This document shows positions 16,120-35,314 of a stretch of DNA of 64,000 nt, piece by piece. How positions within the stretch are numbered: the stretch's first letter is position 1; each line of letters opens with the position of its first letter. The position numbers were made by a program, and so were the translations under genes. The notes beneath the pieces were generated by a model. The model was not told the DNA's origin. It searched no databases and saw only the letters and a program-made list of their open reading frames with translations. The stretch is taken from contig CAVVVA010000002.1 of the NCBI GenBank assembly GCA_963751565.1, positions 198,904 to 262,903 of the forward strand. Direction: 5' to 3'. Source of the DNA: an uncultured Actinomycetes bacterium. Its GTDB lineage: Bacteria; Actinomycetota; Thermoleophilia; UBA2241.

Positions 16120-16230
16120 GCCGTCTCGATCACCGTCGATACCTTTGGCCAGGCCGGTCCGCCCCTGCAAGAGGAGGAGGCGCTGATCGCGGGACTTGTG
16201 TTCGCAACGACACCGCCCGCCAGAGGCTGA
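16120..16230 (+). pseudogene. tyrosine-recombinase 3'-end remnant E (encodes ...ITVDTFGQAGPPLQEEEALIAGLVFATTPPARG*)
   Basis: DNA and protein similarity to the other seven remnants (core GCGCTGATCGCGGGxCTxGTGTTCGC); preceded by an in-frame stop. Confidence 0.5.
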
Positions 16231-16549
16231 GGCCGGTCATCCCGGCTCCACGACGCGCCGCTGCGACGACGTGGGGCATAGGACCCGCCCGACCGTTGGA
16301 TGTATCATCGGTCCGCCGCTCAGACCGGCGAACGTCGTTCCTTGCAGGCGACAACCCTTCTTGATGAGGCTCTGAGACTCACAGTGTCGCTCGCGATCCG
16401 CGAGGCGAACCCCTCGCGCTGATCGCAGCTGCGCCTCGCGCAGTTCGAGTCGCCTCCGACCGTCACCCACCTTCCATCTCCGCCCGGGCACGGGTGTGAG
16501 CGACTCCCAGACCGCATCCGTCCGGTCGCTCGCCCTACAGGAGAAGGCC

Positions 16550-18076
16550 ATGGCACTCGTCTTCGACCACGTCAGCTTCGCCTACGACGGCTCACCGCGC
16601 GAGATCATCTGCGGCCTGTCCGTCCACTTCCCGGCCGGTTGGACCGGCATCATCGGCGCCAACGGCATCGGCAAGAGCACCGTGCTGCAGCTGGCCAGTT
16701 GTCTCCTCGTTCCGACCAAGGGCCTCGTGCGGGGCAGCGGTGCAGCGCTCTATTGCCCACAGCGAACCGACACCGTCCCGGCCCGCCTGGAGGCGTTCAC
16801 TGAGGGCTACTCCGCCGAGGCGAGCGTCCTGCGCCGTGGCCTTGGTATCGGCGCCGACTGGGCCGCGCGCTGGCAGTCCCTCAGTCAAGGCGAACGCAAG
16901 CGGGCGCAGCTTGCCACGGCCCTCTGGCAGCGCCCCGACGTGCTGGCGATCGACGAGCCCACCAACCACCTCGACGAAGAGGCCCGGCGGCGCATCGAGG
17001 AGGCGCTGCACCTCTTCAGGGGAGTGGGCATTCTGGTCAGCCACGATCGCGCGCTGCTCGACGGCTTGTGTCTCCAGTGCCTGTTTCTCGAGCAGGGGGG
17101 TGCGACGATGCGCCCCGGGGGCTATTCCACCGGCAGCCAATCGCGTGTGGAGGAACAGGAGGCCACCCGCACGGGTCGGCGGCAGGCTGCAACTGAGCTC
17201 AAACGACTGCGGCGTATCCAGGTCTCACGACGCACTGAGGCGGACCGGGCCAAGGCCAGACGATCGGCCAAAGGCTTGGCGCGTCACGACAGCGACGGTC
17301 GCGCGCGACGACAAGCGGCGATCGTCAGCGGCAAGGACGGACAGTCCGGCCGGCTGCTGGCCCAGCTCGACGCCCGACTCGAGCGCGCCCGAGAGCGTCT
17401 GGCGACGATGCCCGCGGAGAAGGTTGAGCGCAGCGGCATCTGGCTCTCGGCCGCACGATCGTCGCGCAAGACCGTCGCCAGTCTGCCCGCGGGCTCGATC
17501 GCGGTCGGCGTGAGGCGCCGGCTCACCCACCCGGATCTCGCCCTGGGGCCCAGTGACCGAGTGGCGCTGACCGGTCCCAACGGGGCAGGCAAGACGACAC
17601 TTCTGGTCCACCTCCTGGGCAAGCTCACACTGCCGACGGAGCGCATCGTCTACCTCCCGCAGGAGGTCACCGCCGAGCAGTGTTCCTCGCTGCTCGATGA
17701 GATCAAGGCGAGCGACGAGGCCACGCTCGGCCAACTCCTGACGGTGGTCAGCAGACTAGGCTCGCGTCCGGAGCGCGTGCTCGGGAGTGGGCTTCCGAGC
17801 CCCGGAGAGACGCGCAAGCTCATGCTCGCCACGGGTGTGCTGCGCGAGCCCCACATCGTCATCATGGACGAGCCGACGAACCACCTCGACCTGCCCGCGA
17901 TCGAGTGTCTCGAGGTGGCGCTGTCCGATGCGCCGTGTGCCTTGCTGCTGGTGAGCCACGATCGCCGCTTCTTGGGCCGGCTCTGCACGATCGAGTGGCG
18001 GCTGGAACCGGGAGGCGAGGAGACGCACCTGCGGATCACGGCCATGGAAGCTGCGTCAACGGGCCAGACAGCCTGA
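16550..18076 (+). CDS. ABC-F family ATPase (two ABC domains, no TMD, long Arg-rich inter-domain linker)
   Basis: ATG at 16550 after AGGAGAAGG; two Walker A (GANGIGKST, GPNGAGKTT), two LSxGE signatures, about 90-aa basic linker. Confidence 0.85.
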   Translation: MALVFDHVSFAYDGSPREIICGLSVHFPAGWTGIIGANGIGKSTVLQLASCLLVPTKGLVRGSGAALYCPQRTDTVPARLEAFTEGYSAEASVLRRGLGIGADWAARWQSLSQGERKRAQLATALWQRPDVLAIDEPTNHLDEEARRRIEEALHLFRGVGILVSHDRALLDGLCLQCLFLEQGGATMRPGGYSTGSQSRVEEQEATRTGRRQAATELKRLRRIQVSRRTEADRAKARRSAKGLARHDSDGRARRQAAIVSGKDGQSGRLLAQLDARLERARERLATMPAEKVERSGIWLSAARSSRKTVASLPAGSIAVGVRRRLTHPDLALGPSDRVALTGPNGAGKTTLLVHLLGKLTLPTERIVYLPQEVTAEQCSSLLDEIKASDEATLGQLLTVVSRLGSRPERVLGSGLPSPGETRKLMLATGVLREPHIVIMDEPTNHLDLPAIECLEVALSDAPCALLLVSHDRRFLGRLCTIEWRLEPGGEETHLRITAMEAASTGQTA

Positions 18077-18132
18077 GAGACGCACCCGTCAGCCGATGAG
18101 CCGGAACCTTGGGCTCCGAGACCCGCTTGACA

Positions 18133-19335
18133 TCAGAAAGTCACTGCCCGCCAGGTCGCGCCGCCGTCGGAGCTGAGCACCAGCTTCCCCGGTCGACCGT
18201 CGGTGTTGCCGGCGGCGTCGGCGGGCCCGTGCACTACGACGGCGTCCAAGGGAGTCGTGAAGCCCAGGTCGGCCCAGCCCACGCCGCCGTCGCCATAGGT
18301 CACCGCGGTCTTCCAAGTCCGGCCGCTGTTTGCCGAGCGGTCGAGCCAGCTCGCGCCGCTGGCGGTCGCCAGCACCAGGTCGCTCCCGCTGCCGGCAAGG
18401 GCTTGGGCGTCGCCCTCGCTGCTCGGCGTGCCGGCCTTCTTCCAGTGCGCGCCGTCGTCAACGCTTGTGTAGAGCAGCTTCTCGGCGCCTCCGGCGAAGC
18501 CCGGTCCAACGCAGAGCAGCGCCAAGCCCTCAGCGGAGGTCGCTGCGACCGAGGACGGGCCGAAGTATTGCGGGGTGCCGGGCGTCGCGCGACGGGCGAC
18601 GGTGAGGCCGCCATTGGTGGTCACAAGGAGGCTCTTGCCGTCGAGCACCGCGGCGGTGCCGGCCTGGGTCGAGATGAGGTCGGTCGGGTCGGTCAGGTCG
18701 ACCGTCTTGAGCGCGGCGACCGTGCTCCAGGAGCCGCCGGCCAGAGAGCGACGCAGCAGCACGTACGGCCCCAGGTTGCCCTGCGCCGTGCCCTTCGCGG
18801 TGAGCGCAAGCACCTGCCCGTCGATCGTCGCCAGCGAGAGGATCGAGCCGCTCGGCTGGGAGTCCAGGGTCCAGCGCTGCCCACCGTCGCTTGTCTCCCA
18901 GAGCCCATGGCCGAAGACGAAACCGTGCGAGGGCGAGGCGAAGCGAGTGCCCCACACGGTCCGCTTGCCGCTCGAGGTGACACCGCCCAGAGGGGCAGCG
19001 GGCGCCGCCAGAGCCACCCAGGTACCGCCCCGGTTGAGCGTGCGAAGCAGGGCCGTGCCGCCGCCGGGTGCGGTACCGAGCACAAAGGCTTCCCCGGTCG
19101 AGACGAAGGTCACCGAGGCGGCCCTGAACCCCGCCGGAACCGGGCTGCCGGAAGGGTGCGTGGGCGACGCGGAGCTGCTCGGAGTGCTGGTCGCGACAGG
19201 ACTGGCCGATGTCGGGGCACTCGACGGTGAGGCCGTCGTCGAAGACTGGCCGGTCGACCCACACCCCGCTGAGACAATGGTGAGCGCGAAGCACAGCGCG
19301 ACCAGAGTGAGGGGCCGGGAGCTGCGGAATGACAT
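18133..19335 (-). CDS. lipoprotein with BNR/Asp-box repeats (Ycf48-like / sialidase-like beta-propeller)
   Basis: Signal peptide plus lipobox (LTIVSAGC); repeated S-x-D-G-G-x-W motifs (SDGGQRW, SVDDGAHW, SSDGGATW). Confidence 0.8.
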   Translation of the reverse strand: MSFRSSRPLTLVALCFALTIVSAGCGSTGQSSTTASPSSAPTSASPVATSTPSSSASPTHPSGSPVPAGFRAASVTFVSTGEAFVLGTAPGGGTALLRTLNRGGTWVALAAPAAPLGGVTSSGKRTVWGTRFASPSHGFVFGHGLWETSDGGQRWTLDSQPSGSILSLATIDGQVLALTAKGTAQGNLGPYVLLRRSLAGGSWSTVAALKTVDLTDPTDLISTQAGTAAVLDGKSLLVTTNGGLTVARRATPGTPQYFGPSSVAATSAEGLALLCVGPGFAGGAEKLLYTSVDDGAHWKKAGTPSSEGDAQALAGSGSDLVLATASGASWLDRSANSGRTWKTAVTYGDGGVGWADLGFTTPLDAVVVHGPADAAGNTDGRPGKLVLSSDGGATWRAVTF

Positions 19336-19503
19336 CGTGACCTCGCTTTCGGTGCCAGGAATGAGGGACGGTCCCTGCTGCCGTGTCTCTCTTGAGTATC
19401 AGCGGCCAGCATACTCGCGCAGCGAGTGGTGTTCACGGGGGAGCAGACCGCGCCGAAGCCTGCGGAAGGCCACAGCATGGCGACCGATGCCCGTCAGGCG
19501 CTC

Positions 19504-20245
19504 CTACGGAACGTCTACATAGAGGCCCGCCGCCACCGGCTCGCCCGCCACGACTCTGACCGTGCAGGGCGTCGGCCAGGGCAGGTTGGAGGTGACCAGC
19601 TTGAGCGTATAGACCCCGGGCGCGAGGTCGGCGACGAAGAAGCCATTCTCATCGGAGCGCACCTGCATCAGCGGCTGACCGGAGGCCGGCACCCGGTCAC
19701 CCCTCCAGATCGCCACCTGCGCCTGCGTGATCGGCCGAGGACCGCCCGGGAACGGCCCGCCCTGCATCATCGTGTGACCCCACAGGCCGCTGTTCACGGG
19801 CAGCCGGGGAAGGTAGCTGTGGAATGCGCCCCAGCCGCGACAAGTCGATGCTCGAGGTCGTCAAGCCGTGAGCCAGGTAGGAGTGATCTGCCATCAGGAC
19901 AAGGTACAGGCTGCGTGCCGACGCGCTCCGCCCTCCCTGCGGCATGAAATGGCCCTGTAGCACCACCACGTACACCTCGCGCATCGAGCGGAACATGCGA
20001 AGGTAGCTCGTCGCGCTTCCCGCCAGGCGCGCGGCGCGCGGCGCGCTGGTCTCCAGCCACTGACAGGCTCGTGGGTGAGGCTCGCCGGCGGCAAGCGACT
20101 GCCACAGCGCTTCGCTACGCACCCAGACCGGCGGCAGATCGCCCGACGAGGGCGACGAGCTGGCACGTGTCGCCGGGCTCGCGCTGCCGCAGCCTCCGAC
20201 GACCAGAAGAGCCATCAGAGCCGCAAGAACAGGAACATGTCTCAT
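19504..20245 (-). pseudogene. lipoprotein gene split by an apparent frameshift near 19800 (5' ORF 19697..20245, 3' ORF 19504..19797)
   Basis: The lipobox-containing N-terminal ORF (LLVVGGCGS) runs into a second frame whose product continues plausibly (…YTLKLVTSNLP…VVAGEP… resembles a carboxypeptidase-regulatory-like beta-sandwich); could be a sequencing error. Confidence 0.45.
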
Positions 20246-20403
20246 GGGACTGGCCTCTCCGACGACAACAGGATGCTGTCAGGTTGAGACGCGCACATCC
20301 CAAAGAGAGTTCATCTGCGCGTGTGATTCCCCTCGCCTTCACCTACGGACACGAGGCGGTCGCTTCGCGCACAGCGCTCGCCAGCCAGGTGGACGAGCCA
20401 CCG

Positions 20404-20810
20404 CTACGACAACCTGGCCTGCCTGCTGCCGCGCAGCAGCTGCGTCAACAGCTCCGCGCTTCGCTGAATGTCGATGGCGACCTGCGCCAGGTCGGTCTCG
20501 ACACCGTTGACGGTAGCGGGTTTGTATTCGATTGGGCCGCTTCCCGAGAAGTCGTCCTCAGCGATGAGAACGCCGAACGTGCGCTCGATCTCCGGCTCGA
20601 CGACTTCGTCGAGGGGATTCTTCTCCCGCTCGGTCGCATCGATGGCGACCAGCTCGCGCGCCTGCTCTTCGGTTGCCTCAGTGATGCCGATGACGATGAC
20701 CTCCCGCGGGTCGACGCCATTGAGCACGGTCAGCATCCTGTTCGAGACACCGAACCCGACCGTATGGTACCAAGCTCTGCGAAAATCATCGTAAGTCTTG
20801 CCCTCCCTCA
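20404..20810 (-). CDS. hypothetical protein
   Basis: ORF with a probable GTG start (VAQVTVAIVRRRL...); no recognised family. Confidence 0.35.
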
Positions 20811-20941
20811 ATCTGCGCCTGACGATCGCCACGGTGACCTGGGCCACTGCCCCCTCCTTGCGTCCACTAAGAATTCGTGCATCGGGACTTGACCTCGGGC
20901 TTGTCCTATCGCGAGCCTTGATGCACGACAGGCGCGTCCCC

Positions 20942-21358
20942 TCAGACCTGACCGATGGCCTCGGCCTTTCCAAAGCCCCCGCCCTTGGGTTGCTCGTGCC
21001 AGGGCACCACAAAGCATGCCACCCGCGCACTGAAGAAGCGATCGCCGAGCTTACGCTGCGCCGCCAGCAGGTCGCGCTCGATGACCTCCCGCTCGTCGTA
21101 GAAGAATCCGCCGAGCCGGCGCTGGTAGGCGAGACAATGTTGATGCGCCACCAGGTAGATCGTGTCTACTCCATGTCCCCGGACGATCGCCTCGATCCAG
21201 CCCAGGACGTGGTCTTGCTCGGCTGCCCAGTCGGTCAGCACCAGGGGACCTCCGGGCACGAGCAGCCGATCGCCGTTGTCGGCGCCGATGCGCGTCTCCA
21301 GCTCGGCAAGCGTCTGCCGCAGTCGCCCGTCCACGCAAGAGACGAGAAGGGTGTTCAC
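20942..21358 (-). CDS. small beta-carbonic-anhydrase-like protein (putative Cys-His-Cys zinc site: SCVDGRL ... HQHC)
   Basis: GTG at 21358 preceded by GGGAGG; C-x-D-x-R and H-x-H-C motifs resemble the beta-CA zinc ligands, but the protein is short (139 aa). Confidence 0.4.
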   Translation of the reverse strand: MNTLLVSCVDGRLRQTLAELETRIGADNGDRLLVPGGPLVLTDWAAEQDHVLGWIEAIVRGHGVDTIYLVAHQHCLAYQRRLGGFFYDEREVIERDLLAAQRKLGDRFFSARVACFVVPWHEQPKGGGFGKAEAIGQV

Positions 21359-21461
21359 GACACGTGCCTCCCCTCGGAGCCTCGCCACAACGCAAAGGTT
21401 TGCCGGCACCGGCGCAGGGAGTCAGCGTCGCGCTCGCGGTGGCCGGGTGCCTTGCAGGATA

Positions 21462-21664
21462 CCTTCGACCCCCACTCGCACGCCATCCCGGCGATGCAGG
21501 AGGAGGCGACGGCGATGATCGCAGGGCTGGGGGCGCCGGAGTGCAGGTTCGCCACCGAAACCGGGGAGGCGGCTGCCTCAGCGTGCAATTCCTGTTCGCG
21601 GTACCTCTGGAGTAGGGTGGTAAGCGAAAGCGACGTGCAGCCGCGTCGCAACGACGGCGCCTGA
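21462..21664 (+). pseudogene. tyrosine-recombinase 3'-end remnant C (…DTFDPHSHAIPAMQEEATAMIAGLGAPE… then an unrelated tail)
   Basis: Similarity to the consensus remnant over about 70 bp (21462-21535). Confidence 0.5.
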
Positions 21665-21674
21665 GGTACGGCCG

Positions 21675-22280
21675 GTGGACGACGATGCCAGCAACCGCCG
21701 TGAGCAGCCCTATGTGGCGCACTACGCATGGCCACCTGAGCCACGAGTCGCCTCGGACCGACAGCGCCTCGCCGCCGAAGAGCGCCAGCTCGCCCGGGAG
21801 AGCTACCTCGCCCGTTGGCGTGGCCTGTTCTACGCGCTCGGCGTGGTGCTGGTCTGTGTCTCAATCGCCGGCGGAGCCTTCGCAGTGATGGCGGTTGCCG
21901 GCGCGCTCGCTGCGCCCACGGGGGGCACCACGACGCTGGTTTTGGGGGTAACGCCTGGCGGCGGTCAGAGCAGCATCACGCTGACCGCGACGCAGGCGAT
22001 CGCTGTGGCCGTCGCCATGGTCGTCCTCGAAGCTCTCACTATCTGTGCCGCGTGGCTGCTGTTCGCGAAGCGTCTCCATGGGCGATTCTGGCTCGTCGTC
22101 ACCCTGGCCGCGCTGCTCGCGTCAGGGGCTGCAGTGTGGGCGTGGGAGACCGGCCGACACGACCTGCTCTCGCTCTACTCACCTATGGTCTACGTCTGCC
22201 CCGTCGTCGTCATCGCGGGGCTCGTCCAGCTCCTCCGGGCGCATCGTCTGCGCATGCGCTGGGGCGAGCCAGACGCCTGA
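21675..22280 (+). CDS. hypothetical membrane protein (4 TM)
   Basis: ORF with four hydrophobic helices; sole gene of the C-to-F cassette. Confidence 0.45.
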   Translation: MDDDASNRREQPYVAHYAWPPEPRVASDRQRLAAEERQLARESYLARWRGLFYALGVVLVCVSIAGGAFAVMAVAGALAAPTGGTTTLVLGVTPGGGQSSITLTATQAIAVAVAMVVLEALTICAAWLLFAKRLHGRFWLVVTLAALLASGAAVWAWETGRHDLLSLYSPMVYVCPVVVIAGLVQLLRAHRLRMRWGEPDA

Positions 22281-22350
22281 GGTTCTGCTCCGCAGTCTGA
22301 GACGCCCCGCCTTTTGCCGCTGACCCGAAAGCGCTCAGGGGTCGTTGGCA

Positions 22351-22391
22351 CCGCTGCAGGCGGCGGCGCTGATCGCTGGGCTGGTGCTCGG
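22351..22391 (+). pseudogene. tyrosine-recombinase 3'-end remnant F (about 41 bp: ccgctgcagg..cggcggcgctgatcgctgggctggtgctcg)
   Basis: Shortest copy; carries a 6-bp deletion relative to the consensus. Confidence 0.4.
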
Positions 22392-22525
22392 AGTTCCACC
22401 GACAGCATGTCCCGCCGAGCCGCATGTCGCTGGTGCCCCGCGACACTGAAAGGCTTAGGGTCTGCCCACGTCCTCGACCGCCGGCATGTCCACAGTTGAG
22501 GCACCAAGGGGGTCGCTCCCACCCT

Positions 22526-23128
22526 ATGTTCTACGTGCTCCTGATCTACCCCAACCTGGACGAGAGCCTCGTTGGCCGGTTACGACGGAAGTACGATCCC
22601 ACGACCGACGTCATCCAGCCGCATGTGGCTGTCGTCTTTCCGGTCCCGGAAAGCGTCGGGCGCGACAGTCTCATCTCCCACATAGAGGCCGTCACGGCGG
22701 ACTGGCGGCCGTTCGAGATCCGGCTTGGAGGACTCAACAAGTCGCCCGACCACTGGCTGTTCCTGACGCTCACGCAGGGATGCGAGAGCGTCAGGCGCCT
22801 CTACCGGCCGCTCCACACCGGTGTCTTGGCCGAGTTCCGCATCGCCGAGTCTTCGTTCGTGCCGCGCCTTGCTCTCGGCCTCTTCCTGAGAGAAGGCGCG
22901 ACCTACGACTGGGAGAACCCGCGCGCAGAGACCTTCGATGCCGAGACGTCCCAGGTTGCCCTCTCGGAGGCGCAGCCCCTGCTGGAGGGGTCCGCCGAGC
23001 TCGTCGACACGCTTCACCTGGTCGCCATCCCCGACGAGGTGGTCGAGTGGTTCGGCGGAGAGCGATCGACCTTCTCCCCGAACTTGCGGGCCGAGGAAGT
23101 CCGTGCGTTCCGTATCGGGCGCTCATAG
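22526..23128 (+). CDS. hypothetical protein
   Basis: ATG at 22526; no confident family assignment (two H-x-x-x dyads only weakly resemble 2H phosphoesterase motifs). Confidence 0.45.
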   Translation: MFYVLLIYPNLDESLVGRLRRKYDPTTDVIQPHVAVVFPVPESVGRDSLISHIEAVTADWRPFEIRLGGLNKSPDHWLFLTLTQGCESVRRLYRPLHTGVLAEFRIAESSFVPRLALGLFLREGATYDWENPRAETFDAETSQVALSEAQPLLEGSAELVDTLHLVAIPDEVVEWFGGERSTFSPNLRAEEVRAFRIGRS

Positions 23129-23154
23129 CCGCGCTGGTGTTCGCGGTGAAGTAG
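23117..23154 (+). pseudogene. tyrosine-recombinase 3'-end remnant G (gcgctcatagccgcgctggtgttcgcggtgaagtag)
   Basis: 36-bp match to the 3' terminus of the consensus, including the stop codon. Confidence 0.4.
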
Positions 23155-23217
23155 GGGCGTGGTCTGCGCACGCAGCCGCGTCTTGACCGAGACAGGCTGA
23201 GCGTCGCAGCTGCGCTT

Positions 23218-23382
23218 TCAGTACTTGGCCGGCCGCGGCGACGAGAAGGCGGCGGTGAGTTTCTGCTTGATCTTGTGGCTGCCGCACTTGGGGCAGACCG
23301 CCTTGGCTTCGCGCTCATCCATGTGGCAGGTGATTTCGAACTCGGTGCCGCACTTCTTGCACTTGAAGTCGTAGGCAACCAT
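23218..23382 (-). CDS. FmdB-family zinc-ribbon protein (MVAYDFKCKKCGTEFE...CPKCGSHK)
   Basis: Canonical FmdB N-terminus and two CxxC pairs; ATG start. Confidence 0.65.
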   Translation of the reverse strand: MVAYDFKCKKCGTEFEITCHMDEREAKAVCPKCGSHKIKQKLTAAFSSPRPAKY

Positions 23383-23415
23383 GGTGCCCTCCCGGTGACG
23401 GCTTCGCACTGCCCT

Positions 23416-23754
23416 CAGTCGCGCGGCCTTCGTGTGCGCCAGTGAAACAGCGCCCCGAGGACCATGCCCAGCAACAGGCCGAGGATGGCGGCAAAGAGCA
23501 CCAGCCAGACAAGCGAGACCGACGAGGTCACCGAACACCCAGCTGACCTTGACGTGGCCGGTGTTGGCCAGCACCAGGGCGATCAGAAAGACGAGCAGTA
23601 CGACCGCGAAGCCGGCATAGAGGTAGAGGCGGGCCCGATGGGCCTTGCGGGCAAAACGCGCACCGCCGGTCTCGGCGACCGTCTCTGTCGCGGCGGCGGT
23701 GCCTAGCGGATCGACCGACTCTGTCTGCTCGAAGGACCCTTCACCGGAACTCAT
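23416..23754 (-). pseudogene. LapA-domain (DUF1049-like) small membrane protein gene interrupted by a 1-nt frameshift near 23530
   Basis: 5' frame encodes ...ANTGHVKVSWVFG; the 3' part (VTSSVSLVWLVLFAAILGLLLGMVLG...RRPRD*) continues in a different frame; may be a sequencing error. Confidence 0.4.
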
Positions 23755-23805
23755 CTTGCCCCCTCTTCTGTCGGCTGACCAGGCAACCAGTCTGCGCTGG
23801 GCCCG

Positions 23806-26595: not shown

Positions 26596-26604
26596 AGGGC
26601 CGCG

Positions 26605-27246: not shown

Positions 27247-27257
27247 GGTGGGCCTTG

Positions 27258-30200
27258 TCAGTCTGAGTCGGCCGCGATTCGCTCCATTAACTCACCGGTC
27301 TCGGCGATCGCCGGCTTGGCGCCAAGCCGCGCGAAGATCTCGCGGGCCGCAGCAAGAGGCGCTGCCGCCTCCGCCCCTCTGCCCAGTGCCACCAGACAGC
27401 GCCCCTGGCCGAGCAGCGCCTGGGCCTCTTCATAGGGCATGCCGAACTCACACCAGCCGGCGGCGGCGGTGGCCAAGCCGGCCAGCGCCGCCTCGTGCTC
27501 GCCGCGCGACTCGGCGAGCAGAGCGCCCACGGTCGTCAGAACATGTCGATGCAGCGGCAGGCTCTCCCTGGCCGCAAAGGACTCGACCGTCGCCACCATC
27601 TGCGCGGCCAGGGGGGCATCATCACAGGCGAGGGCCAGCCGCAACGCTTCCGGGAAAAGCTCCTCGTCAGCTACACCCATATCGACCATCCCCGGCACCC
27701 ACTCGTTGAGCAGCGCCAGAGCGGCGTCGCTCTCACCGAGACGCAGATGCACCGCCGAGGCCGCCAGCAGGGCCCCGCCGCGCAGCTGGATGGCCTCGCT
27801 CTCGCGACCCTGCTGCGCCAGCCAGGCCAGCAACGGCGCCGCTTCGAGCGGCTCGCCGCGGCAGGCGAAGATGAGCGCCCGCTGCGTTCGCAGATAGACC
27901 AGATTATAGGCGTCCTCGAGCTCTTCCAGGCTCGGCGCCAGCTCGCCAGCCTCGGCCAGCGCCCGATCCCACTCGCCTACGCGGCGCAGGCTCTCCACCA
28001 GCTGCGCACGGAACAAGAGCTCCGTGAGTTCGTTCCCGCAGCGGCGGGTAAACTCGAGCCCCTCGTCTATGACATCCAGGGTCGCAGGGGCCCCTCTGGT
28101 GAGCATGACCGGATACACGTAGTTGTTCTCGATCATGGCCCGCTCGAATCCGAGCCCCTGAGCCCGCGCCGCTGCCAAGGCGCGTTCTTGGTCCTCCAGG
28201 CCGCCGAGGTCACCGAGTTCGAGGCGCGCCAGGCCGCGGTAGCTCAGCGCCCAGGCGGGCTCGGGCAGCGCAAGCTGCTCACAGATCGCGCTGGCCCGCG
28301 TCGCCGCCGCGATCGCCGACTGGTAGTCTGCCTGCGCCTCGTAGAGACCATGGGCGTAGCCGGTGAACACCCAGGCCTGTTCCGCTGACGGCCCGTCGTT
28401 TGCCAAGAGGGCCACTGCCGCCCGGTGCAGGTCTGCAGACGGTTCGCCGAACCTCAAGTGATCGAGGGCGAGCCAGGTCATCGCCGCCGCTGCCGCGCGG
28501 ATGTCGCCGCACGCCTGCAGACCGGCGATGGCCTCCTCCATGGCGGCGGACGCCTCGCGGTGGCCGCTTCTGTGCATGTTTACAGCCAAGCCCCAGCGTG
28601 GCAGGAGCCGCGGCCTCTCACTGCTGTCTGTGCCGGCCAACTCCAGGGCACGGGCGAAGTAGCGTTCGGCCGCCGCCCCATCGAGGCGCAGCGCCCGCTC
28701 GCCGGCGTGCCCAAGATGCCGGATGGTCGGCGCCACCAGCGAGGAAGCCAGCTCCTCATCGCCGAGCGCCCGGGCCAGGTCGAGGGCCGTCGCGTAGTGG
28801 TGGGCGAGCACCTCGGCGAGCTCCTCGGCCCGCTCGCCGGCCTTGGCCTCGATCCAGGCGGCCGCGGCCGCGTGCTTGTGAGCCCGTACGGCGCGGGGCA
28901 GCTCGCCATAGGCGACGTCGCGCGCCAGCGTATGGCCGAAGACGAACTCGTTCTCGCCGGCCAGCGACGACTGCCGCACGCGCCGCACAAGGTGCTTGGT
29001 GACCAGCTCGCGCAGGGCCCCGTCCACGTCTGTGGCGGCGCCTTGCCCGAGGGCGGCCACGGCGCCGTTCCAGAAGACGTCGCCGAGCACGGCGGCGTCG
29101 CCGAGGACGGCCTTCTGCTCGGCTGGCAGCGCGTCAAGACGCGCCGCCACCACGGCCTGTATCGAGGCCGGCAGCGGCGCGCCCTGCACCTGGTCGTTAA
29201 GCAGGCGCGCCGACTCCTCGGCAAAGAAGGGGTTGCCTTCGCAGTGCGCGACGATATCGGCGGCCCGCTGGCCGAGGGCCTCGGCGTCACCGACCAGTTC
29301 GTTCACCAGGCGCTCGGTCTCGGTGTGTGTCAGCGGCTCTAAGGAGATGCGGTTGAGCTGCGTGCTGCCGGCGGCGAAGGTGGGATGCCCTTCGAAGAGT
29401 TCCGGGCGTGCTGTGCCGAGCATGACTAAAGGCACGCGGTCGATATGCGTGGCGAGATGTTCGACGAAGGCCAGCAGACCCTCGTCGGCCCAGTGCAGGT
29501 CCTCGAGCACCACAACCAGCGGCTCGCGGAGCGCCAGCTGCTCGAGGAATCCCAGCCAGGCCGCGAAGTTCTCCTCGCGGCCGGCCTGCGGCGCCTCCAG
29601 ACCGAGCAGGGCGCGCAGCCTTTGGCGGAACCATTCACGGTCAGGACCGCCGGGCAGCACCGGGCCGAGCTTCTCGTCGACTGCGGCGGGCGTGTCGCTG
29701 TCCAGGATGGCGGCATGGGCCTTGACGATCTCGGCCAGCGCCCAGAAGGTCACGCCCTCGCCGTAGGGCAGACAGCGGCCCTGGCGCCAGGTGACCATGG
29801 CGGGACTGGCATCGACGTAGGCAAGCAGCTCGACAAGCAGACGGCTCTTGCCGATGCCGGGCTCGCCGACGATCAGAGCGAACTGCGGCGCCGCGGCGGC
29901 CAGTGCCTTGTCGAAGAGTGCCATGAGGTAGGCGAGCTCCACCTCACGGTCCACCAGCGGCGTGAGGCGACCCTTCTCGGCCACGCTGCCCAGGCGCGCC
30001 AGCGGCGCCTTGGCGAGCCAGAGCGCCAGCGGCTCGCTCTTGCCCTTGGCCTCAACCGGCGCCAGCTCCTCACAGGTAAAAGCCCGGCCGGCAAGGCCGA
30101 AGGTGCTCTGCCCCATGACGACGCCGCCCGGCGGCGCGGCGGCCTGGAGACGCGCTGCCGTGTTCACGGCGTCGCCGGTCAGAAAGCCGCGGCCAGAGAG

Positions 30201-30644
30201 GGGATCGACGTCGAGGCGCACCAGCGCCTCGCCGGTGTTGACGCCGATGCGCACGGCAAGCGGCGTGCCGTCCGGTGCTGCGAGACCCTCGAGAGCCTGC
30301 ACCAGGCGCAGAGCGGCGTGCACGGCGCGCTCCGGGTCGTCCTCGTGCGCCGCCGGCACGCCAAAGACACCGACCACGGCGTCACCGATGAACTTCTCGA
30401 CGGTGCCGCCGTGGGACTCGATGACCTGACGGGCGGTGGCGCTGTAACTGCGCAGCAGGGCGTCGACGTCCTCGGGATCGGCGGCCTCGCTCATGGCGGT
30501 GAAGGCGACCAGGTCGCAGATCAGGGTAGTGACGACCTTGCGTTCCTCGGGGGCTGCCGACGGCGCAGCGAGCTTGGTGCCGCACTTGGCGCAGAAGGCG
30601 GAGCCGTCGGCGGTCTCAAAGCCGCAGGAAGGGCAGGCGATCAC
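27258..30644 (-). CDS. multidomain signalling protein: N-terminal zinc ribbon + class III adenylate/guanylate cyclase domain + AAA_16/STAND-type P-loop NTPase + TPR-like repeats (1128 aa, no HTH)
   Basis: CPSCG...CAKCG; the cyclase block (...FIGDAVVGVFG...RIGVNTGEALV...); Walker A GEPGIGKSRL and Walker B VVVLEDLHWAD; long helical repeat C-terminus. Confidence 0.85.
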   Translation of the reverse strand: MIACPSCGFETADGSAFCAKCGTKLAAPSAAPEERKVVTTLICDLVAFTAMSEAADPEDVDALLRSYSATARQVIESHGGTVEKFIGDAVVGVFGVPAAHEDDPERAVHAALRLVQALEGLAAPDGTPLAVRIGVNTGEALVRLDVDPLSGRGFLTGDAVNTAARLQAAAPPGGVVMGQSTFGLAGRAFTCEELAPVEAKGKSEPLALWLAKAPLARLGSVAEKGRLTPLVDREVELAYLMALFDKALAAAAPQFALIVGEPGIGKSRLLVELLAYVDASPAMVTWRQGRCLPYGEGVTFWALAEIVKAHAAILDSDTPAAVDEKLGPVLPGGPDREWFRQRLRALLGLEAPQAGREENFAAWLGFLEQLALREPLVVVLEDLHWADEGLLAFVEHLATHIDRVPLVMLGTARPELFEGHPTFAAGSTQLNRISLEPLTHTETERLVNELVGDAEALGQRAADIVAHCEGNPFFAEESARLLNDQVQGAPLPASIQAVVAARLDALPAEQKAVLGDAAVLGDVFWNGAVAALGQGAATDVDGALRELVTKHLVRRVRQSSLAGENEFVFGHTLARDVAYGELPRAVRAHKHAAAAAWIEAKAGERAEELAEVLAHHYATALDLARALGDEELASSLVAPTIRHLGHAGERALRLDGAAAERYFARALELAGTDSSERPRLLPRWGLAVNMHRSGHREASAAMEEAIAGLQACGDIRAAAAAMTWLALDHLRFGEPSADLHRAAVALLANDGPSAEQAWVFTGYAHGLYEAQADYQSAIAAATRASAICEQLALPEPAWALSYRGLARLELGDLGGLEDQERALAAARAQGLGFERAMIENNYVYPVMLTRGAPATLDVIDEGLEFTRRCGNELTELLFRAQLVESLRRVGEWDRALAEAGELAPSLEELEDAYNLVYLRTQRALIFACRGEPLEAAPLLAWLAQQGRESEAIQLRGGALLAASAVHLRLGESDAALALLNEWVPGMVDMGVADEELFPEALRLALACDDAPLAAQMVATVESFAARESLPLHRHVLTTVGALLAESRGEHEAALAGLATAAAGWCEFGMPYEEAQALLGQGRCLVALGRGAEAAAPLAAAREIFARLGAKPAIAETGELMERIAADSD

Positions 30645-30647
30645 GGC

Positions 30648-32024
30648 TCACCCGGCCGCAGGCTCGGCGGCGTACAGCCGCCAGCTGCCCGGCACGCCCT
30701 TGAGCTCGTGCTCGCCGCGGTCGGTGAAGGAGAGGCCCGAGCCGGCGACCAGGTCCTTGACGGTGGAGGAGACGAGGACCTCCGAAGGCTTCGCCAATGC
30801 GCCAACCCTGGCGCCGATGTGCACGGCGATGCCACCCACGTCGGTTCCCAGCAGCTCGATCTCGCCGGTGTGGCAGCCGGCGCGCACCTCAATGCCCAGT
30901 GGCTTGACCGCCTCGCAGATGCCCTGGGCGCAGCGCACCGCCCGGGCCGGCCCGTCGAAGGTGGCCAGAAAGCCGTCGCCCATCGTCTTGACTTCGGTGC
31001 CGCGGTAGCGGGCCAGCAGGCTACGGGTGGCCGCGCGATGGCGCTCGAGGAGTTCCTGCCAGCGAAGGTCGCCCAGCTTCGCCGCCGTCTGGGTCGAGCC
31101 CACCACGTCGGTGAAGAGAACCGTGGCCAGCACGCGGTCGAGCTCGACCTCCTCTTCGCGCACCGAGGCAAGGAAGTGCTCCATGGCCGAGACCAGGGGT
31201 CCGGGCTCCTCCACCCAGGGGATGTCGGCGACACCCGATACCGCCACCAGGGCGGCGCCCGGTATGCGCTCGGCGGGGTAGGCCGCCCACTCTGGAGTCC
31301 AAGAATCGGGACTGTCGGCCTTGTAGAACACGGCGGTCGGCACGTGCACCGAGGGCAGCACGTGGCGCACGTCGGTCTCGAACAACATGCGCTCGAAGGC
31401 CTCGTAGCTGGCCGGCGTCGCGGCGTAGCGGAAGAACCTCGCGCTCCACGCCATAAAGGCCGCGTCGAGCGGTGGCTGCTGGGCGGGATCTTCGCCGAAG
31501 ATCCAGCTCATCAGGTCAGGCGTGATGCCCTCTTCCTCGCCCCAGCTCGCGACGGTGGTGGCGATGATCGCGTCGAGCTCCTCCTCGGTCATCCCCCAGG
31601 GGTAGTCCTCGGTGCGCCTCAAGGAGATGTCGCCGTCGATGAGCAGCGCCGACGTGCGCTCGGGGTAGGTGGACGCGAACACGACCGCCAGGGGAGGGCC
31701 GCCGGTTCCCCACCCGTAGAGGGCTGCCCGCTCCACCCCGGCGGCGTCCATGACCGCCCGGATGTCGTCCATGCGCACGCCGATGTCGAGCGGCCCACTG
31801 ACCCTGTCCGAGAGGCCCGTGCCGCGCTTGTCGAAATGGAGCACGCGCATACTGCGCGATAGCCGGTGCATGAGACGGGCGAACGGGGGCCACTCCCAGT
31901 AGACCTCCACGTGCGAGACCCAGCCATGGATCACGACGAGGGTCAGCGGCCCCGCGCCGAAGTCCTGGTAGGCGATCGAGGCGCCGTCGATGGTCTTCGC
32001 TCGGCGTGTCTTGGGGACGTCCAT
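30648..32024 (-). CDS. alpha/beta-hydrolase + class III nucleotide cyclase fusion protein (LipJ-like), paralog 1
   Basis: N-terminal alpha/beta-hydrolase fold; C-terminal cyclase block (VLFTDVVGST...KTMGDGFLATF...RAGCHTGEIE); ATG (MDVPKT) overlaps the upstream stop by 1 nt; 4-nt gap to the STAND-cyclase gene. Confidence 0.8.
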   Translation of the reverse strand: MDVPKTRRAKTIDGASIAYQDFGAGPLTLVVIHGWVSHVEVYWEWPPFARLMHRLSRSMRVLHFDKRGTGLSDRVSGPLDIGVRMDDIRAVMDAAGVERAALYGWGTGGPPLAVVFASTYPERTSALLIDGDISLRRTEDYPWGMTEEELDAIIATTVASWGEEEGITPDLMSWIFGEDPAQQPPLDAAFMAWSARFFRYAATPASYEAFERMLFETDVRHVLPSVHVPTAVFYKADSPDSWTPEWAAYPAERIPGAALVAVSGVADIPWVEEPGPLVSAMEHFLASVREEEVELDRVLATVLFTDVVGSTQTAAKLGDLRWQELLERHRAATRSLLARYRGTEVKTMGDGFLATFDGPARAVRCAQGICEAVKPLGIEVRAGCHTGEIELLGTDVGGIAVHIGARVGALAKPSEVLVSSTVKDLVAGSGLSFTDRGEHELKGVPGSWRLYAAEPAAG

Positions 32025-33388
32025 CACGGCGCCACCGCGTAGAGGTGCCACGGCTCGGGCACGCCCTTGAGCTCGTGCTCGCCGCGGTCGGTGAAGACGA
32101 GGCCCGATCCGGCGACCAGGTCCTTGACGGTGGAAGAGACGAGGACCTCAGACGGCTCGGCGAGCGCACCGACGCGGGCGCCGATGTGCACGGCGATGCC
32201 GCCCACATCAGCGCCCAGCAGCTCGATCTCGCCGGTGTGACAGCCGGCCCGCACCTCGAGGCCCAGGGGCTTGACGGCCTCGCAGATGCCCTGGGCGCAG
32301 CGTACCGCCCGCGCCGGGCCATCGAAGGTGGCCAGAAAGCCGTCGCCCATCGTCTTGACCTCGGTGCCGCGGTAGCGGGCCAGCAGGGCCCGCACGGCCG
32401 CGGAGTGGCGTTTGAGAAGTTCTTTCCAGCGCGCATCGCCGAGCTCGGCGGCCCGCTGCGTCGAACCCACGACGTCGGTGAACAACACCGTGGCCAGCAT
32501 GCGGTCGAGGTCCTCTTGCTCACGCCGCACCGAGGCCAGGAAGCCCTCGATGGCTGCGACGAAGGGCTCGGGGTCTTCAATGTCGGCCGCATACGCAGCG
32601 CCCACGTACTCGACGACCTTGGCGCCGGCGATCAGTCCCGCGTTGTAGACGGCACGGGCCCGATGCTCGTCATCCCATCCCGTCGCCTGCAGGCACCCGG
32701 TGGGGACATGGACGCTGGGCAGGATGTCGCGCACGTCGGTCTCGTAGGTCACCCGGTCGTACTCGGCGATGGTCGTCGGCGTCGCGGAGAACCTCGCCAG
32801 GCGTGTGAACCAAGCCAGGAACGCCGGATCGTCGTGGGGCGCGTCGACCGGACGCTCACCGTATATGTCGCGCACGAGCTCGGCGGCGTAGGACGGGTCG
32901 CCCCAGTGCGCGCTGTTGTTTCTGATGTCGGCCTCCTGCTCTTCGGCAGTCCAGCCGAAGGGGTAGTCCGCAGAGCGCCGACAGCAGAAGTGCCCCCCGT
33001 TGACGATGAGTGCCAGGACGCGCTCCGGCTGGCTGGCGGCAAAGAAGGCGGCCAAGCATGGGCCGCCGGTACCCGAGACTAGCAGGGCGGCACGCTCGAC
33101 ACCGGCGGCGTCCATCACCGCCCGCACGTCGTCCATACGAGTATCGAGGTCGGCGGCCAGCGTGCGGTCGGACATGCCCACGCCGCGCTTGTCGAAGGCA
33201 AGCATGCGCATGTCGCGTGCCAGGCGGCGCATGAAGCGCACGCAGCGCGGTTGCTCCCAGAGGATCTCGAGGTGCGAGATCCAGCCGGGGATCACGACCA
33301 GGGTGACCGGGCCCTGTCCGAAGTCCTGGTAGGCGATCGAGGCGCCGTCGATGGTCTTCGCCCAGTGGACCTCGGGGATCTCGCTCAC
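32024..33388 (-). CDS. alpha/beta-hydrolase + class III nucleotide cyclase fusion protein, paralog 2
   Basis: GTG start (VSEIPEVHWAKTIDG) after GAAGGGGGG; near-identical cyclase-domain DNA to paralogs 1 and 3. Confidence 0.8.
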   Translation of the reverse strand: MSEIPEVHWAKTIDGASIAYQDFGQGPVTLVVIPGWISHLEILWEQPRCVRFMRRLARDMRMLAFDKRGVGMSDRTLAADLDTRMDDVRAVMDAAGVERAALLVSGTGGPCLAAFFAASQPERVLALIVNGGHFCCRRSADYPFGWTAEEQEADIRNNSAHWGDPSYAAELVRDIYGERPVDAPHDDPAFLAWFTRLARFSATPTTIAEYDRVTYETDVRDILPSVHVPTGCLQATGWDDEHRARAVYNAGLIAGAKVVEYVGAAYAADIEDPEPFVAAIEGFLASVRREQEDLDRMLATVLFTDVVGSTQRAAELGDARWKELLKRHSAAVRALLARYRGTEVKTMGDGFLATFDGPARAVRCAQGICEAVKPLGLEVRAGCHTGEIELLGADVGGIAVHIGARVGALAEPSEVLVSSTVKDLVAGSGLVFTDRGEHELKGVPEPWHLYAVAP

Positions 33389-33648
33389 CGTCGCCCCCCC
33401 TTCATGGCCTCGAATCGATGTGCGCTCCTGCCCGACCGATCCTAGCACCTGAACCCGGGCCAGCGTTTGCAAGGTGTTCGCAGGAGCACCGACTCGGCGC
33501 ATCGCTGATGTCGCTCAGGCTGTCTCGCAAGCGTGAAGAGCCGTGATCAGAGGTAGGTGACCTGCGCCCTGGGGGGCGGCGCGTGCTCCACTACGTCTGT
33601 GGACGCTGGTGAGCGAAACCGATTGACGTATCGCGGGGTAACAGCGTC

Positions 33649-35022
33649 TCAAGCTGCGGCAGTCTCGGCCGCGTAGAGCCGCCAGCTGCCCGGCACGCCC
33701 TTGAGCTCGTGCTCGCCACGGTCGGCGAAGCTCAGGCCCGAGCCGGCGACGAGGTCCTTGACGGTCGAGCTGACGAGGACCTCGGAGGGACCGGCAAGTG
33801 CACCGACGCGGGCGCCGATGTGGACGGCGATGCCGCCCACGTCTGAGCCCAGCAGCTCGATCTCGCCGGTGTGGCAGCCGGCCCGTACTTCTAGGCCGAG
33901 GGGTCTGACCGCTTCGCAGATGCCCTGGGCGCAGCGCACCGCCCGCGCCGGTCCGTCGAAGGTGGCCAGGAAGCCGTCGCCCATGGTCTTGACTTCCGTG
34001 CCGCGGTAGCGGGCCAGCAGGGCTCGCACGGTGGTGCAGTGCCGCTCCAGCAGTTCCTTCCAACGGGCGTCGCCGAGCTCGGCGGCGCGCTGTGTCGAGC
34101 CCACCACGTCGGTGAACAACACGGTGGCCAGCAGGCGGTCGAGGTCCTCCTGCTCGCGTCGCACGGAGCCCAGGAAGCCCTCGATAGCCGCGACGAAGGG
34201 CTCGGGGTCTTCAATGTCGAGGGAATACGCGGCGCCCGCGTACTCGACGACCTTGGCGCCGGCGATCAGTCCCGCGTTGTAGGCGGCGCCCGCCTTGCCC
34301 TCTTCTTCCCACCCCGTCGCCTGCAGACTGGCCGTCGGGACGTGGACGCTGGGCAGGATGTCGCGCACGTCGGTCTCGTAGGTCACCCGCTCGAACGCCG
34401 CGTAGGTCGTCGGTGTCGCCGAGAACCTCGCCAGGCGTGCGCTCCAGGCCAGGAAGGCCGGGTCGTCGAAGGGCGCATCAACCGGACGCTCACCCCAGCC
34501 GAAGCGGACGAGCTCGGCGGCGTAGGCCGGGTCGCCCCAGTGCGCAGTGAGGTTCCTGATCTCGGCCTCCTCCTCTTCGGCAGTCCAGCCGTAGGGATAG
34601 TCCGCAGAACGCCGGCAGCAGAAGTACCCCTCGACGATGAGCGCCAGGACGCGCTCGGGCTGGCTCGCGGCGAAGAAGGCGGCCAGGCAGGGGCCGCCGC
34701 TGCCCTCGGCCAGCAGGGCGGCGCGCTCCACACCGGCGGCATCCATCACCGCTCGCACGTCGTCCATGCGGGTCTCAAGATCGGTAGCCATGGTGCGGTC
34801 GGACATGCCCAGGCCGCGCTTGTCGAAGACAAGCACACGCATGTTGCGCGCCAGGCGGCGCATGAAGCGTGCGTAGCGGGGCTGCTCCCAGTAGACCTCG
34901 AGGTGCGTGATCCAGCCGGGGATCACGACCAGGGTGACCGGACCCGAGCCGAAGTCCTGGTAGGCGATCGAGGCGCCGTCGATGGTCGTCGCCCAGCGGA
35001 CCTGGGGGATCTCGCTCACCAT
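33649..35022 (-). CDS. alpha/beta-hydrolase + class III nucleotide cyclase fusion protein, paralog 3
   Basis: ATG (MVSEIPQVRW) after GAAGGGAGGG; same domain layout. Confidence 0.8.
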   Translation of the reverse strand: MVSEIPQVRWATTIDGASIAYQDFGSGPVTLVVIPGWITHLEVYWEQPRYARFMRRLARNMRVLVFDKRGLGMSDRTMATDLETRMDDVRAVMDAAGVERAALLAEGSGGPCLAAFFAASQPERVLALIVEGYFCCRRSADYPYGWTAEEEEAEIRNLTAHWGDPAYAAELVRFGWGERPVDAPFDDPAFLAWSARLARFSATPTTYAAFERVTYETDVRDILPSVHVPTASLQATGWEEEGKAGAAYNAGLIAGAKVVEYAGAAYSLDIEDPEPFVAAIEGFLGSVRREQEDLDRLLATVLFTDVVGSTQRAAELGDARWKELLERHCTTVRALLARYRGTEVKTMGDGFLATFDGPARAVRCAQGICEAVRPLGLEVRAGCHTGEIELLGSDVGGIAVHIGARVGALAGPSEVLVSSTVKDLVAGSGLSFADRGEHELKGVPGSWRLYAAETAAA

Positions 35023-35162
35023 CGCCCTCCCTTCATCGCCCGGAGTCGCTGCGCGCTCCTCGCCGCCCGATCCTAACACCCGACGTCGGGCACCTTGGTG
35101 TTGGGCGACGGGGCTGCGCTTGAAAGCGGAGGACGCCCCGAAACGGTTGCAGAGCTGACAGT

Positions 35163-35314
35163 GGCGGCGCCCCGAGGTCGTCTCCGAGCGCCTCGGCCAC
35201 GCGAGCATCTCGATCACACCAGACACCTGCTCGGATGCCATTCCACCCGTACGTGAGGAGGCGCCCGCGACGATCACGGCGCCCGTCACCAGAACGTCGG
35301 AAAGGCTAGGGTGA
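35163..35314 (+). pseudogene. tyrosine-recombinase 3'-end remnant H (QWRRPEVVSERLGHASISITPDTCSDAIPPVREEAPATITAPVTRTSERLG*)
   Basis: Diverged copy (Tyr replaced by Cys, as in D) immediately upstream of the cyclase block on the other side from A. Confidence 0.5.

Follow-up and report, generated by a model that had tools for sequence, protein, structure and literature searches.

Remnants of an integrase gene end as candidate attachment sites in a cassette-like array of an uncultured Thermoleophilia bacterium

Why should the same short end of a recombinase gene occur eight times, always in one orientation, within a single accessory region of a bacterial chromosome? The question is raised by a 64,000-nt stretch of DNA (69.7% G+C, hereafter the window) on contig CAVVVA010000002.1 of an uncultured thermoleophilian soil bacterium. 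An initial annotation had marked eight plus-strand fragments of a tyrosine-recombinase 3′ end there, with small groups of unrelated genes between them, and read them as the traces of elements inserted one after another at an attachment (att) site inside that gene end. Here, the fragments (F1–F8) and the units they delimit were compared with related loci from other genomes. The reading we favor, with a probability of roughly 0.7, is a self-targeting tandem accretion, in which elements inserted site-specifically, one after another, at an att site in the integrase tail and the integrase copies then decayed in their 5′ parts.

An integrase tail as a conserved DNA site

The 42-residue peptide encoded by the best copy was matched by tblastn at eight places, all on the plus strand between 16.1 and 35.3 kb and none elsewhere in the window. 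A nucleotide hidden Markov model built from the 3′ ends of full-length relatives (int-3′ HMM) recovered seven of the eight, with E-values from 4e-4 to 6e-35 (F4 was the one missed), and neither search found anything comparable elsewhere in the window or on its minus strand. A 27-bp core, GCGCTGATCGCGGGGCTGGTGTTCGCG, is present in seven fragments with 0–7 mismatches, while the more degenerate F8 keeps only its left half. Four core matches in the window have at most three mismatches, against none in 100 shuffled sequences, and three further copies carry 4–7. All eight fragments of the initial annotation were thus recovered, including the replacement of the catalytic tyrosine by cysteine in two of them (F6 and F8); its limits needed correction at F5, where similarity starts near 25318–25355 and not at 25270, and the core it took to be common to all copies is lacking in full from F8. 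Within the window, neither a tRNA gene nor an Rfam family at the gathering threshold nor an intact integrase was found, the last in line with the earlier claim. The window array is an orphan chain of eight units with no live integrase left in the window.

Relatives were sought by scanning one genome per species, which yielded 287 stretches encoding them; the best 80 of the 287 were examined. These come nearly all from metagenome-assembled genomes (MAGs) of Thermoleophilia and other Actinomycetota from soil and peat. All related loci were collected via similarity to the tail, which biases the sample to conserved sites; most of their source genomes are MAGs, and their genes were called by a crude heuristic based on G+C content at third codon positions. 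In these other genomes, the scan located what the annotation had proposed to look for, a full-length recombinase with this C-terminus; in the window’s own genome, of which the window and short matching contigs were covered, no integrase was found. By tblastn and HMM comparison, the fragments are 3′ ends of a phage-type tyrosine integrase of ~417 residues, and those of the window align to residues 363–417. In MAGs of Thermoleophilia and other Actinomycetota, full-length members of the family are repeated many times within a genome; at least 11 loci among the best 80 matches come from one MAG.

The full-length proteins start with MRGS.RHRG and consist of an N-terminal arm region with a zinc ribbon, followed by a SAM-like domain and by a catalytic domain bearing the motifs HDLRH...LGH...YSH. 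Pfam identifies them as tyrosine recombinases (PF00589, 80 bits against a cut-off of 27.1; PF14659, 37 bits). Their C-terminal end reads ...HDLRHTHATLALQAG.HPKVVSERLGHA..ITLDTYSHAIPAMQEEAAALIAGLVFA, followed after ...LVF by 1 to ~50 variable residues, and the core encodes residues ~406–415, beyond both the catalytic tyrosine (~389) and the end of the Pfam match (residue 397). The integron-integrase NCBIfam models scored below threshold on the integrase (35.9 with a cut-off of 265 and 25.7 with a cut-off of 435), and Xer models far under their cut-offs. A phage origin was rejected: the nearest phage and plasmid integrases are at most 36% identical, and a 23-nt core has no exact match in IMG/VR. 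F7 contains a 59-residue open reading frame (ORF) whose product has an identical counterpart in a Thermoleophilia MAG; elsewhere it is annotated as ‘hypothetical protein’ or ‘integrase’ (P0001). A word-indexed protein search with the 42-residue query returned only proteins of at most 74 residues, although full-length integrases with the same tail exist and were found by the genome scan and a representative search. The missing long hits are probably a length effect of the search and are therefore not to be taken as biology.

The int-3′ HMM was then applied to 78 loci and the window, and all 183 matches are co-oriented with the reference integrase of their locus. On the right, the ends of homology cluster at HMM positions 482–493, about three codons past the core (451–477) and close to the usual stop (about 486–489); information content is approximately zero by 12 nt after the core. 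On the left, homology begins anywhere from HMM position 1 to 449, so that the matches range from full-length genes down to the core alone, most fragments being shorter than 120 nt. Of the cores attached to long genes, 81% have an in-frame stop within the next five codons, as do 70% of those in fragments and 9% of random positions; its usual place is exactly two codons past the core.

When sites were picked by their flank only, the mean number of core mismatches to the consensus was 3.79 in fragments and 3.80 in intact genes. The coding remnant 31–60 nt upstream of the core, in contrast, has mismatches at 26% of positions in fragments versus 7% in genes, a 3.5-fold difference. Since the core is kept while its flank decays, it behaves as a conserved DNA site and not as part of a decaying pseudogene; the earlier description of the copies as old and decaying applies to the flanking remnant but not to the core. 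In intact genes, third codon positions carry 1.3–1.4 bit over the last ~28 codons versus 1.0 bit further upstream.

Several further properties were sought at the site. Folding as single-stranded DNA, assessed in six 101-nt folds (five site sequences, one on both strands), was no better than for shuffled sequence (z from −0.55 to +1.63), and an attC-like structure was rejected. As to arm-type sites, there is no conserved motif right of the core, and phased CTCG..CAC repeats on the left decay in fragments. The flanks left of core-only sites are unrelated to one another, so that a common host attB was likewise dismissed. In two loci, the GAGGAG stretch coding for the two glutamates of ...AMQEEAA... 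has grown into long GAG/GAGGAG runs (L014 ~13230–13290, L027 ~680–735), which is simple-repeat slippage inside an integrase remnant.

Unit modularity and the origin of the chain

Arrays of the window type recur across the related loci. At least two cores were counted in 38 of the 67 core-bearing loci and at least three in 18, with seven in L014. Core-to-core spacing ranges from 307 to 8051 bp (median ~1.1 kb). Between the cores, 97 ORFs hit 143 Pfam families, e.g., PadR, aldo/keto reductases, MFS and ammonium transporters, nitroreductases and cupins, with no mobile-element hallmark among those listed. Three arrays hold common units in different order: FmdB–Z in L039, X–Y–Z in L054 and Y–FmdB–W in L062. 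Between L054 and L062, the tail, cargo and right-hand fragment of unit Y are 91–93% identical, while the left fragment and core are at the background level of 72–74%; the change in identity comes directly behind GGTGYT at the left end and directly behind GGTGCT at the right end. Judging from these switch points, unit Y appears to carry its own fragment at its right end rather than the displaced end of a neighbor. In a second pair from different MAGs (L024 and L056), 5.5 kb is 96% identical from ~10 nt after the core, while the integrases are 75% identical and the proximal units differ. The cassette-like array envisaged by the annotation is supported: co-oriented arrays of tail fragments follow integrases in many genomes, their units are reordered with core boundaries, and the window’s block is absent from two related contigs, described below.

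A number of core-to-core units still hold a full-length integrase together with cargo, including an ammonium transporter AmtB (L014), a dehydrogenase ADH and others (L013), and a SpoIIE phosphatase with a permease (L017). In L070, an HTH_17 excisionase-type gene overlaps the integrase start (xis-int), with a core on each side, and Prim-Pol/PriCT/DUF3987, D5_N/DUF5906, AAA_25 and HTH_17 genes lie upstream of other integrases. By this gene content, some integrase copies sit at the right end of small replicative integrative elements. The polarity of the fragments was considered as evidence for a capture platform, 62 short fragments lying downstream and 14 upstream within 6 kb of intact integrases, and was rejected, since the Prim-Pol and xis genes place the element body upstream of the integrase.

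The proposed recombination site lies at the very 3′ end of the integrase gene and comprises its final ~10 codons (...AALIAGLVFA), two or three further codons and the stop. A circular unit, consisting of a tail with its stop, the cargo, and an integrase gene or 3′ remnant up to the core, would recombine with the corresponding site that terminates a resident integrase gene or remnant. The upstream gene would thereby receive a new tail of two to three residues and a stop, and the unit’s own integrase end would come to stand before the old tail. Repetition would produce a head-to-tail, co-oriented chain with an integrase tail at each junction, whose integrase copies would later lose their 5′ parts while the site persists. 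The integrase itself would catalyze the joins, with strand exchange predicted to fall within about 10 nt of the core’s right end (GGTGTTCGC). The fragment sites may still be in use; this would explain why the core is conserved, and would mean that units lacking an integrase are, like known elements, mobilizable by one supplied in trans. Repeated insertion at an att site in a recombinase 3′ end, as first suggested, gains support from the full-length integrases that carry the exact tail.

A number of observations weigh against this reading. Two loci of one genome, L010 and L023, are identical over 1.9 kb including most of the integrase and have the order int-A-B and int-B, respectively. The fragment that follows A is similar to the end of the gene in the other copy, and all 16 mismatches of the gene are confined to its final ~500 bp. 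Besides any site-specific events, this suggests that repeated ends have undergone homologous exchange or gene conversion; no exact crossover could be read from the pair, as the two kinds of exchange are inseparable in it. The exchange points, taken from few locus pairs, are not fully consistent: at most 3 nt after GGTG for unit Y, ~13 nt after GGTG for L024/L056 and ~34 nt after the core at the end of the L010/L023 duplication. The site has no clear inverted-repeat core architecture and no conserved sequence beyond position +12 to the right of the core. Nor is the surplus of fragments on the downstream side of intact integrases discriminating, since the space upstream is taken up by the element body. 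The limits of the whole island are set by another repeat, of 23 bp, which lies ~120 bp past F8, and at least one integration therefore made no use of the integrase tail. Finally, the evidence is computational throughout, none of it experimental. The annotation’s idea that each insertion displaces the previous 3′ end fares unevenly: L010/L023 fits displacement or homologous exchange better, whereas unit Y would have brought its own fragment.

[quoted passage not shown] Unit sizes are integron-like (median ~1.1 kb, minimum ~0.3 kb), the cassette ORFs are diverse as described above, the core is conserved in fragments, and a genome offers many platforms, as the at least 11 loci from one MAG among the top 80 hits illustrate. 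Units with very short fragments (X, Y, FmdB and RNA-only units of 310–410 bp) recur across arrays and positions, and fragments below 120 nt are about 20 times as frequent as a uniform placement of deletion end-points would give. Yet live units of cargo and integrase lie within the arrays and fragment lengths form a continuum from full length to core only, which the decay of autonomous units fits equally well; the presence or absence of a unit can also come from deletion; the orientation bias of the cassettes (83 antisense versus 33 sense) follows no common promoter logic; and neither a circular cassette nor a recent transfer of an integrase-less unit was demonstrated. Tentatively, Thermoleophilia and neighboring Actinomycetota might possess a second, independently evolved gene-capture system, whose phage-type integrase would dock at the last codons of its own gene and would assemble and shuffle arrays of small integrase-less, including RNA-only, cassettes at many platforms per genome.

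It is rather unlikely that the fragments are passive relics without site function, left by tandem integration of complete elements followed by deletion and homologous recombination between integrase ends. The continuum of truncated integrases, the exchange suggested by L010/L023, unit 4 of the window as a fusion that lost internal sites, and the degenerate state of several window cores (F2, F8) would all suit such an origin. However, the core does not decay along with its flank, units have sharp boundaries whose place is the same from one unrelated array to another, and neutral deletion would not leave the last 30–100 nt of a gene so regularly. Chance similarity in a 70% G+C genome, or chimeric joining at repeats in an assembly from a metagenome, is refuted by the absence of comparable core matches from all 100 shuffles, by HMM E-values down to 6e-35, by many related arrays on contigs of 0.2–2 Mb, and by five independent assemblies (NCBI GCA_050015135.1, ENA and three JGI metagenomes) that reproduce 24.0–30.9 kb at 99.4–99.9% identity with the order F5–F7, which is therefore no assembly artefact.

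The island, its boundaries and its content

Self-targeting tandem accretion, the preferred reading, would account for the inside of the array; its outer limits follow from two metagenome contigs, L089 and L092. Both are collinear with window positions 1–13070 at 74–99% protein identity and then run into the sequence at 35.4–36.5 kb. The block 13135–35409 is absent from both, and the decarboxylase gene adjoins a small RNA (sRNA) gene and msrB there. Because these contigs run straight across, the block is a 22.3-kb insertion, and its empty site is a conserved intergenic region upstream of the sRNA. Imperfect copies of a 23-bp chromosomal stretch stand at the two island ends (13112–13134 and 35410–35432), and no further copy was found inside the island; a chain built at this boundary site was accordingly rejected. 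A tRNA or tmRNA target was also discarded, none lying in the window.

F8 is the remnant beside the island’s right junction and, with its altered core, belongs to a diverged subtype. The right-arm stretch 35365–35406 recurs after an integrase fragment in L070 (6936–6977), and 35395–35427 recurs at the end of L101, the closest relative, beside an integrase-like remnant. L070 is syntenic with the left flank of the window and has its core-flanked xis-int module at the island’s place. The locus is a hot spot for the element family, with one integration via a conventional att site just beyond an integrase gene, the seven core sites being junctions inside the island. In the comparison of syntenic loci that had been proposed, the block is missing from relatives, and the island as a whole sits at a different att site, the 23-bp repeat upstream of the sRNA. 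The chain lies within this island, itself inserted upstream of the sRNA gene, in the order attL, cargo 0, F1, cargo 1, F2 and so on to cargo 7, F8, arm and attR (Table 1).

The sRNA is 6C-like and is kept next to the decarboxylase gene in relatives (L088, L089, L092); the island is inserted immediately upstream of it, in its apparent promoter region. Its terminator stem (window 35495–35515, also in L089 and L092) holds CGCGGGGCTCGT, an 11/12 match to the center of the integrase core, CGCGGGGCTGGT. This likeness (CGCGGGGCT.GT, 11/12) was noted and judged possibly fortuitous in DNA so rich in G+C; alternatively, it might point to an ancestral target.

Table 1. Coordinates of the island, its fragments, units and associated features (window positions unless a related locus is named; aa, integrase residues).
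Feature	Coordinates	Strand	Description
Left island boundary	13112–13134		Imperfect copy ATCAGGCGTCCTTGACACGGGCT of a 23-bp chromosomal sequence that recurs at the right boundary; the alignment with L089 and L092 (empty-site contigs) diverges after it
Unit 0 cargo	13135–16120		Three glyoxalase-superfamily genes and a 435-aa ORF (Pfam); stretch absent from L089 and L092
Unit 0 glyoxalase-superfamily genes	13223–13615; 13661–14251; 14319–14798	−; −; +	Pfam
Unit 0 435-aa ORF	14863–16170	−	No Pfam match, low G+C at third codon positions; possibly not a gene
F1	16121–16211	+	aa ~387–415; core 16180–16206, 3 mismatches; no nearby stop; protein E 6e-6, HMM E 6e-12
Unit 1 cargo	16212–21460		ABC-F-type ATPase 16496–18076 +, BNR/sortilin-like protein 18133–19335 −, small ORFs (Pfam)
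F2	21461–21538	+	aa ~390–412; match 21461–21531; degenerate core 21512–21538, 7 mismatches; protein E 3e-8, HMM E 3e-16
Unit 2 cargo	21539–22357		ORF 21675–22280 +, no family
F3	22358–22392	+	Core-only site; core 22366–22392, 4/27 mismatches; HMM E 4e-4
Unit 3 cargo	22393–23118		2′-5′ RNA ligase superfamily gene 22424–23128 +
F4	23119–23154	+	Core-only site; core 23119–23145, 4/27 mismatches, then two codons and TAG
Unit 4 cargo	23155–25317		FmdB-type zinc ribbon 23218–23382 −, Transgly_assoc 23806–24108 −, Hsp20 24270–24722 − (Pfam)
FmdB mini-unit copies	23155–23408; L011 4431–4719; L028 5941–6222; L039 10165–10456; L062 10964–11261; L014 20006–20207; L067 15914–16098		
Unit 4 candidate structured RNA	about 24798–24935	−	Alignment and consensus fold
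Other copies of this noncoding element	L030 5924–6117; L074 7403–7592; L059 5396–5538; L083 2973–3135; L008 10247–10391; L055 10730–10869		
F5	25318–25451	+	aa ~376–417; similarity starts 25318/25355; core 25411–25437, 3 mismatches; stop 25444–25446; E 1e-14, HMM E 4e-20
Unit 5 cargo	25452–26497		Alpha/beta hydrolase 25469–26491 +
F6	26498–26599	+	Frameshifted, Tyr to Cys; core 26560–26586, 1 mismatch; HMM E 9e-21
Unit 6 cargo	26600–27075		103-aa ORF 26605–26916 −, no significant family
F7	27076–27258	+	Best fragment, aa 363–415; perfect core 27211–27237; stop 27244–27246; protein E 1e-23, HMM E 6e-35
Unit 7 cargo	27259–35170		Zinc-ribbon/cyclase/AAA_16 gene 27258–30644 −; three tandem paralogous hydrolase-cyclase genes 30648 to about 35050 −
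F8	35171–35287	+	Diverged, aa ~375–413, Tyr to Cys; left core half recognizable, right half not; protein E 8e-9, HMM E 4e-17
Right-arm segment	35288–35409	+	Between F8 and the island boundary
Right island boundary	35410–35432		TTCGCCCGCGCTTAACACGGACT, second copy of the 23-bp chromosomal sequence, just upstream of the 6C-like sRNA
6C-like sRNA	35468–35521 (flanks 35410–35540)	+	Two C-rich loops and intrinsic terminator; RF01066 29.1 bits vs gathering 47, E 0.04 for a 321-nt search

The BNR gene of unit 1 has a homologue of 76% identity in another array (L059 11346–12593). L059 was rejected as a syntenic locus, as the BNR and cyclase genes it has in common with the window are probably shared units and not chromosomal synteny. 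Parts of unit 4 are found as separate units in other arrays, and the ~290 bp after F4 match sequence directly after a core in at least five loci (L011, L014, L028, L039, L062). Unit 4 is apparently a fusion of units that lost internal sites, and no residual core was detected inside it. Unit 7 contains tandem repeats labeled D1–D4. Three tandem paralogues (30644–35019), with a period of 1.36–1.63 kb and 75–87% identity, each combine an alpha/beta-hydrolase with an adenylate/guanylate cyclase domain. A contig from a near-identical population (L001) has only two copies within its 7.2 kb, which is perhaps truncated, and a split large cyclase gene; the copy number may thus vary between strains.

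With respect to orientation, 83 of 116 inter-core ORFs (arrays L007–L084 and the window) are antisense to the integrase and 33 are sense. Transcription of most cargo thus runs towards the core before it, and the integrase remnant lies upstream of where the gene begins. A mini-unit encoding a ~55-residue FmdB-type zinc-ribbon protein (PF09723), on the strand opposite to the integrase, is positioned just behind a core in at least seven loci, three of which (L011, L028, L039) have it immediately behind the integrase stop. Instead of cargo, it may represent a conserved gene of the element’s end, for instance a regulator.

A noncoding element of ~140 nt lies upstream of hsp20 in the window, and its copies share 74–86% nucleotide identity. 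No conserved ORF was found in any of its frames, and no Rfam match even at E ≤ 1. The minus strand is predicted to form a multi-stem fold closed by an 11-bp helix (43 pairs, 99% of cells paired), with a consensus energy of −56 kcal/mol versus −41 kcal/mol for the plus strand. Three compensatory pairs and 13 one-sided changes that keep a standard pair (G-U to or from G-C or A-U) were counted. In L008 and L059, the element is the sole content of a 310–410-bp unit between two cores.

Relation to known systems

The initial annotation knew of no comparable array, and no description was found in the full-text literature searched, subscription-only papers lying outside its scope. If the favored reading is true, one integrase family would explain a large share of the small-scale accessory gene turnover in abundant uncultured Actinomycetota of soil and peat. 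No complete integrons were found in Actinobacteria genomes (PMC4889954); the more tentative gene-capture system, if real, would be functionally analogous to an integron in this phylum. The tail fragments, now annotated as ‘hypothetical protein’ or ‘integrase’ ORFs of 40–75 residues, are an easily searchable signature and delimit cargo modules precisely, as tRNA fragments do for classical islands. Since the att site overlaps the end of the integrase ORF, each recombination would rewrite the last residues of the protein, which could couple integrase stability or activity to the state of the array. The site is short and defined in sequence, which makes the proposal directly testable by a two-site recombination assay.

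In layout there is a likeness to integrons and CALINs (PMC4889954), which also set a tyrosine recombinase beside a one-directional array of small, diverse cassettes and also exist as orphan arrays; small diverse cassettes are found here as well, given the median of 1.1 kb, the 143 Pfam families and the shuffling among L039, L054 and L062. The integrase, however, is not IntI. Furthermore, attC sites are imperfect palindromes recombined as folded single strands, whereas the present sites are conserved as double-stranded sequence. In integrons, attI and the Pc promoter lie upstream of intI with the array on the 5′ side; here the site is in the 3′ coding end of the integrase and arrays are found downstream of it, all 183 matches being co-oriented. 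Antisense cassette genes are numerous, and units can carry their own integrase. The array therefore resembles an integron or CALIN in layout but is not an integron, differing in integrase type, attC structure and attI position.

Tandem islands at tRNA and tmRNA genes (Islander, PMC4383910; Dehalococcoides ssrA, PMC3146451) likewise comprise serial insertions, co-oriented fragments of the target’s 3′ end and a fixed right end. In those islands, an RNA gene is restored by the incoming island; here the fragment is the end of a recombinase ORF, in a window with neither tRNA nor tmRNA.

A site within the integrase ORF is known from Mx8 IntP and SSV-type integrases (PMC4383910, PMC7253208, PMC8371274), where integration changes the protein made and part of the gene remains at the element’s opposite end. 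SSV integration splits and inactivates the gene, whereas here the site follows the catalytic tyrosine and the genes beside arrays are full length. Because the site is a non-catalytic tail, integration leaves the integrase gene whole, and one element can serve as target for the next. The variability of the C-terminal tails fits an attP within int that alters the C-terminus, as in Mx8. Mx8 targets a host site, reportedly a tRNA-Asp gene according to Tojo et al. 1996; the window has no tRNA gene, no common host target lies left of core-only sites, and the usual target here appears to be another copy of the same site.

Accretion of elements of the ICESt1/ICESt3 type is, finally, a precedent for the chain itself. 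It yields head-to-tail units with att copies, in which units lacking an integrase and transfer genes, the cis-mobilizable elements (CIMEs), keep their att sites and are mobilizable in trans (PMC5704250). Arrays of the window type similarly mix intact, truncated and core-only junctions, arranged head to tail. Accretion, however, usually joins two or three large elements whose att sites lie in the 3′ end of a host gene (fda, tRNA), whereas here the att site is the integrase’s own tail, the elements target each other, units are mostly 0.3–3 kb, and arrays reach at least seven to eight sites at many loci per genome.

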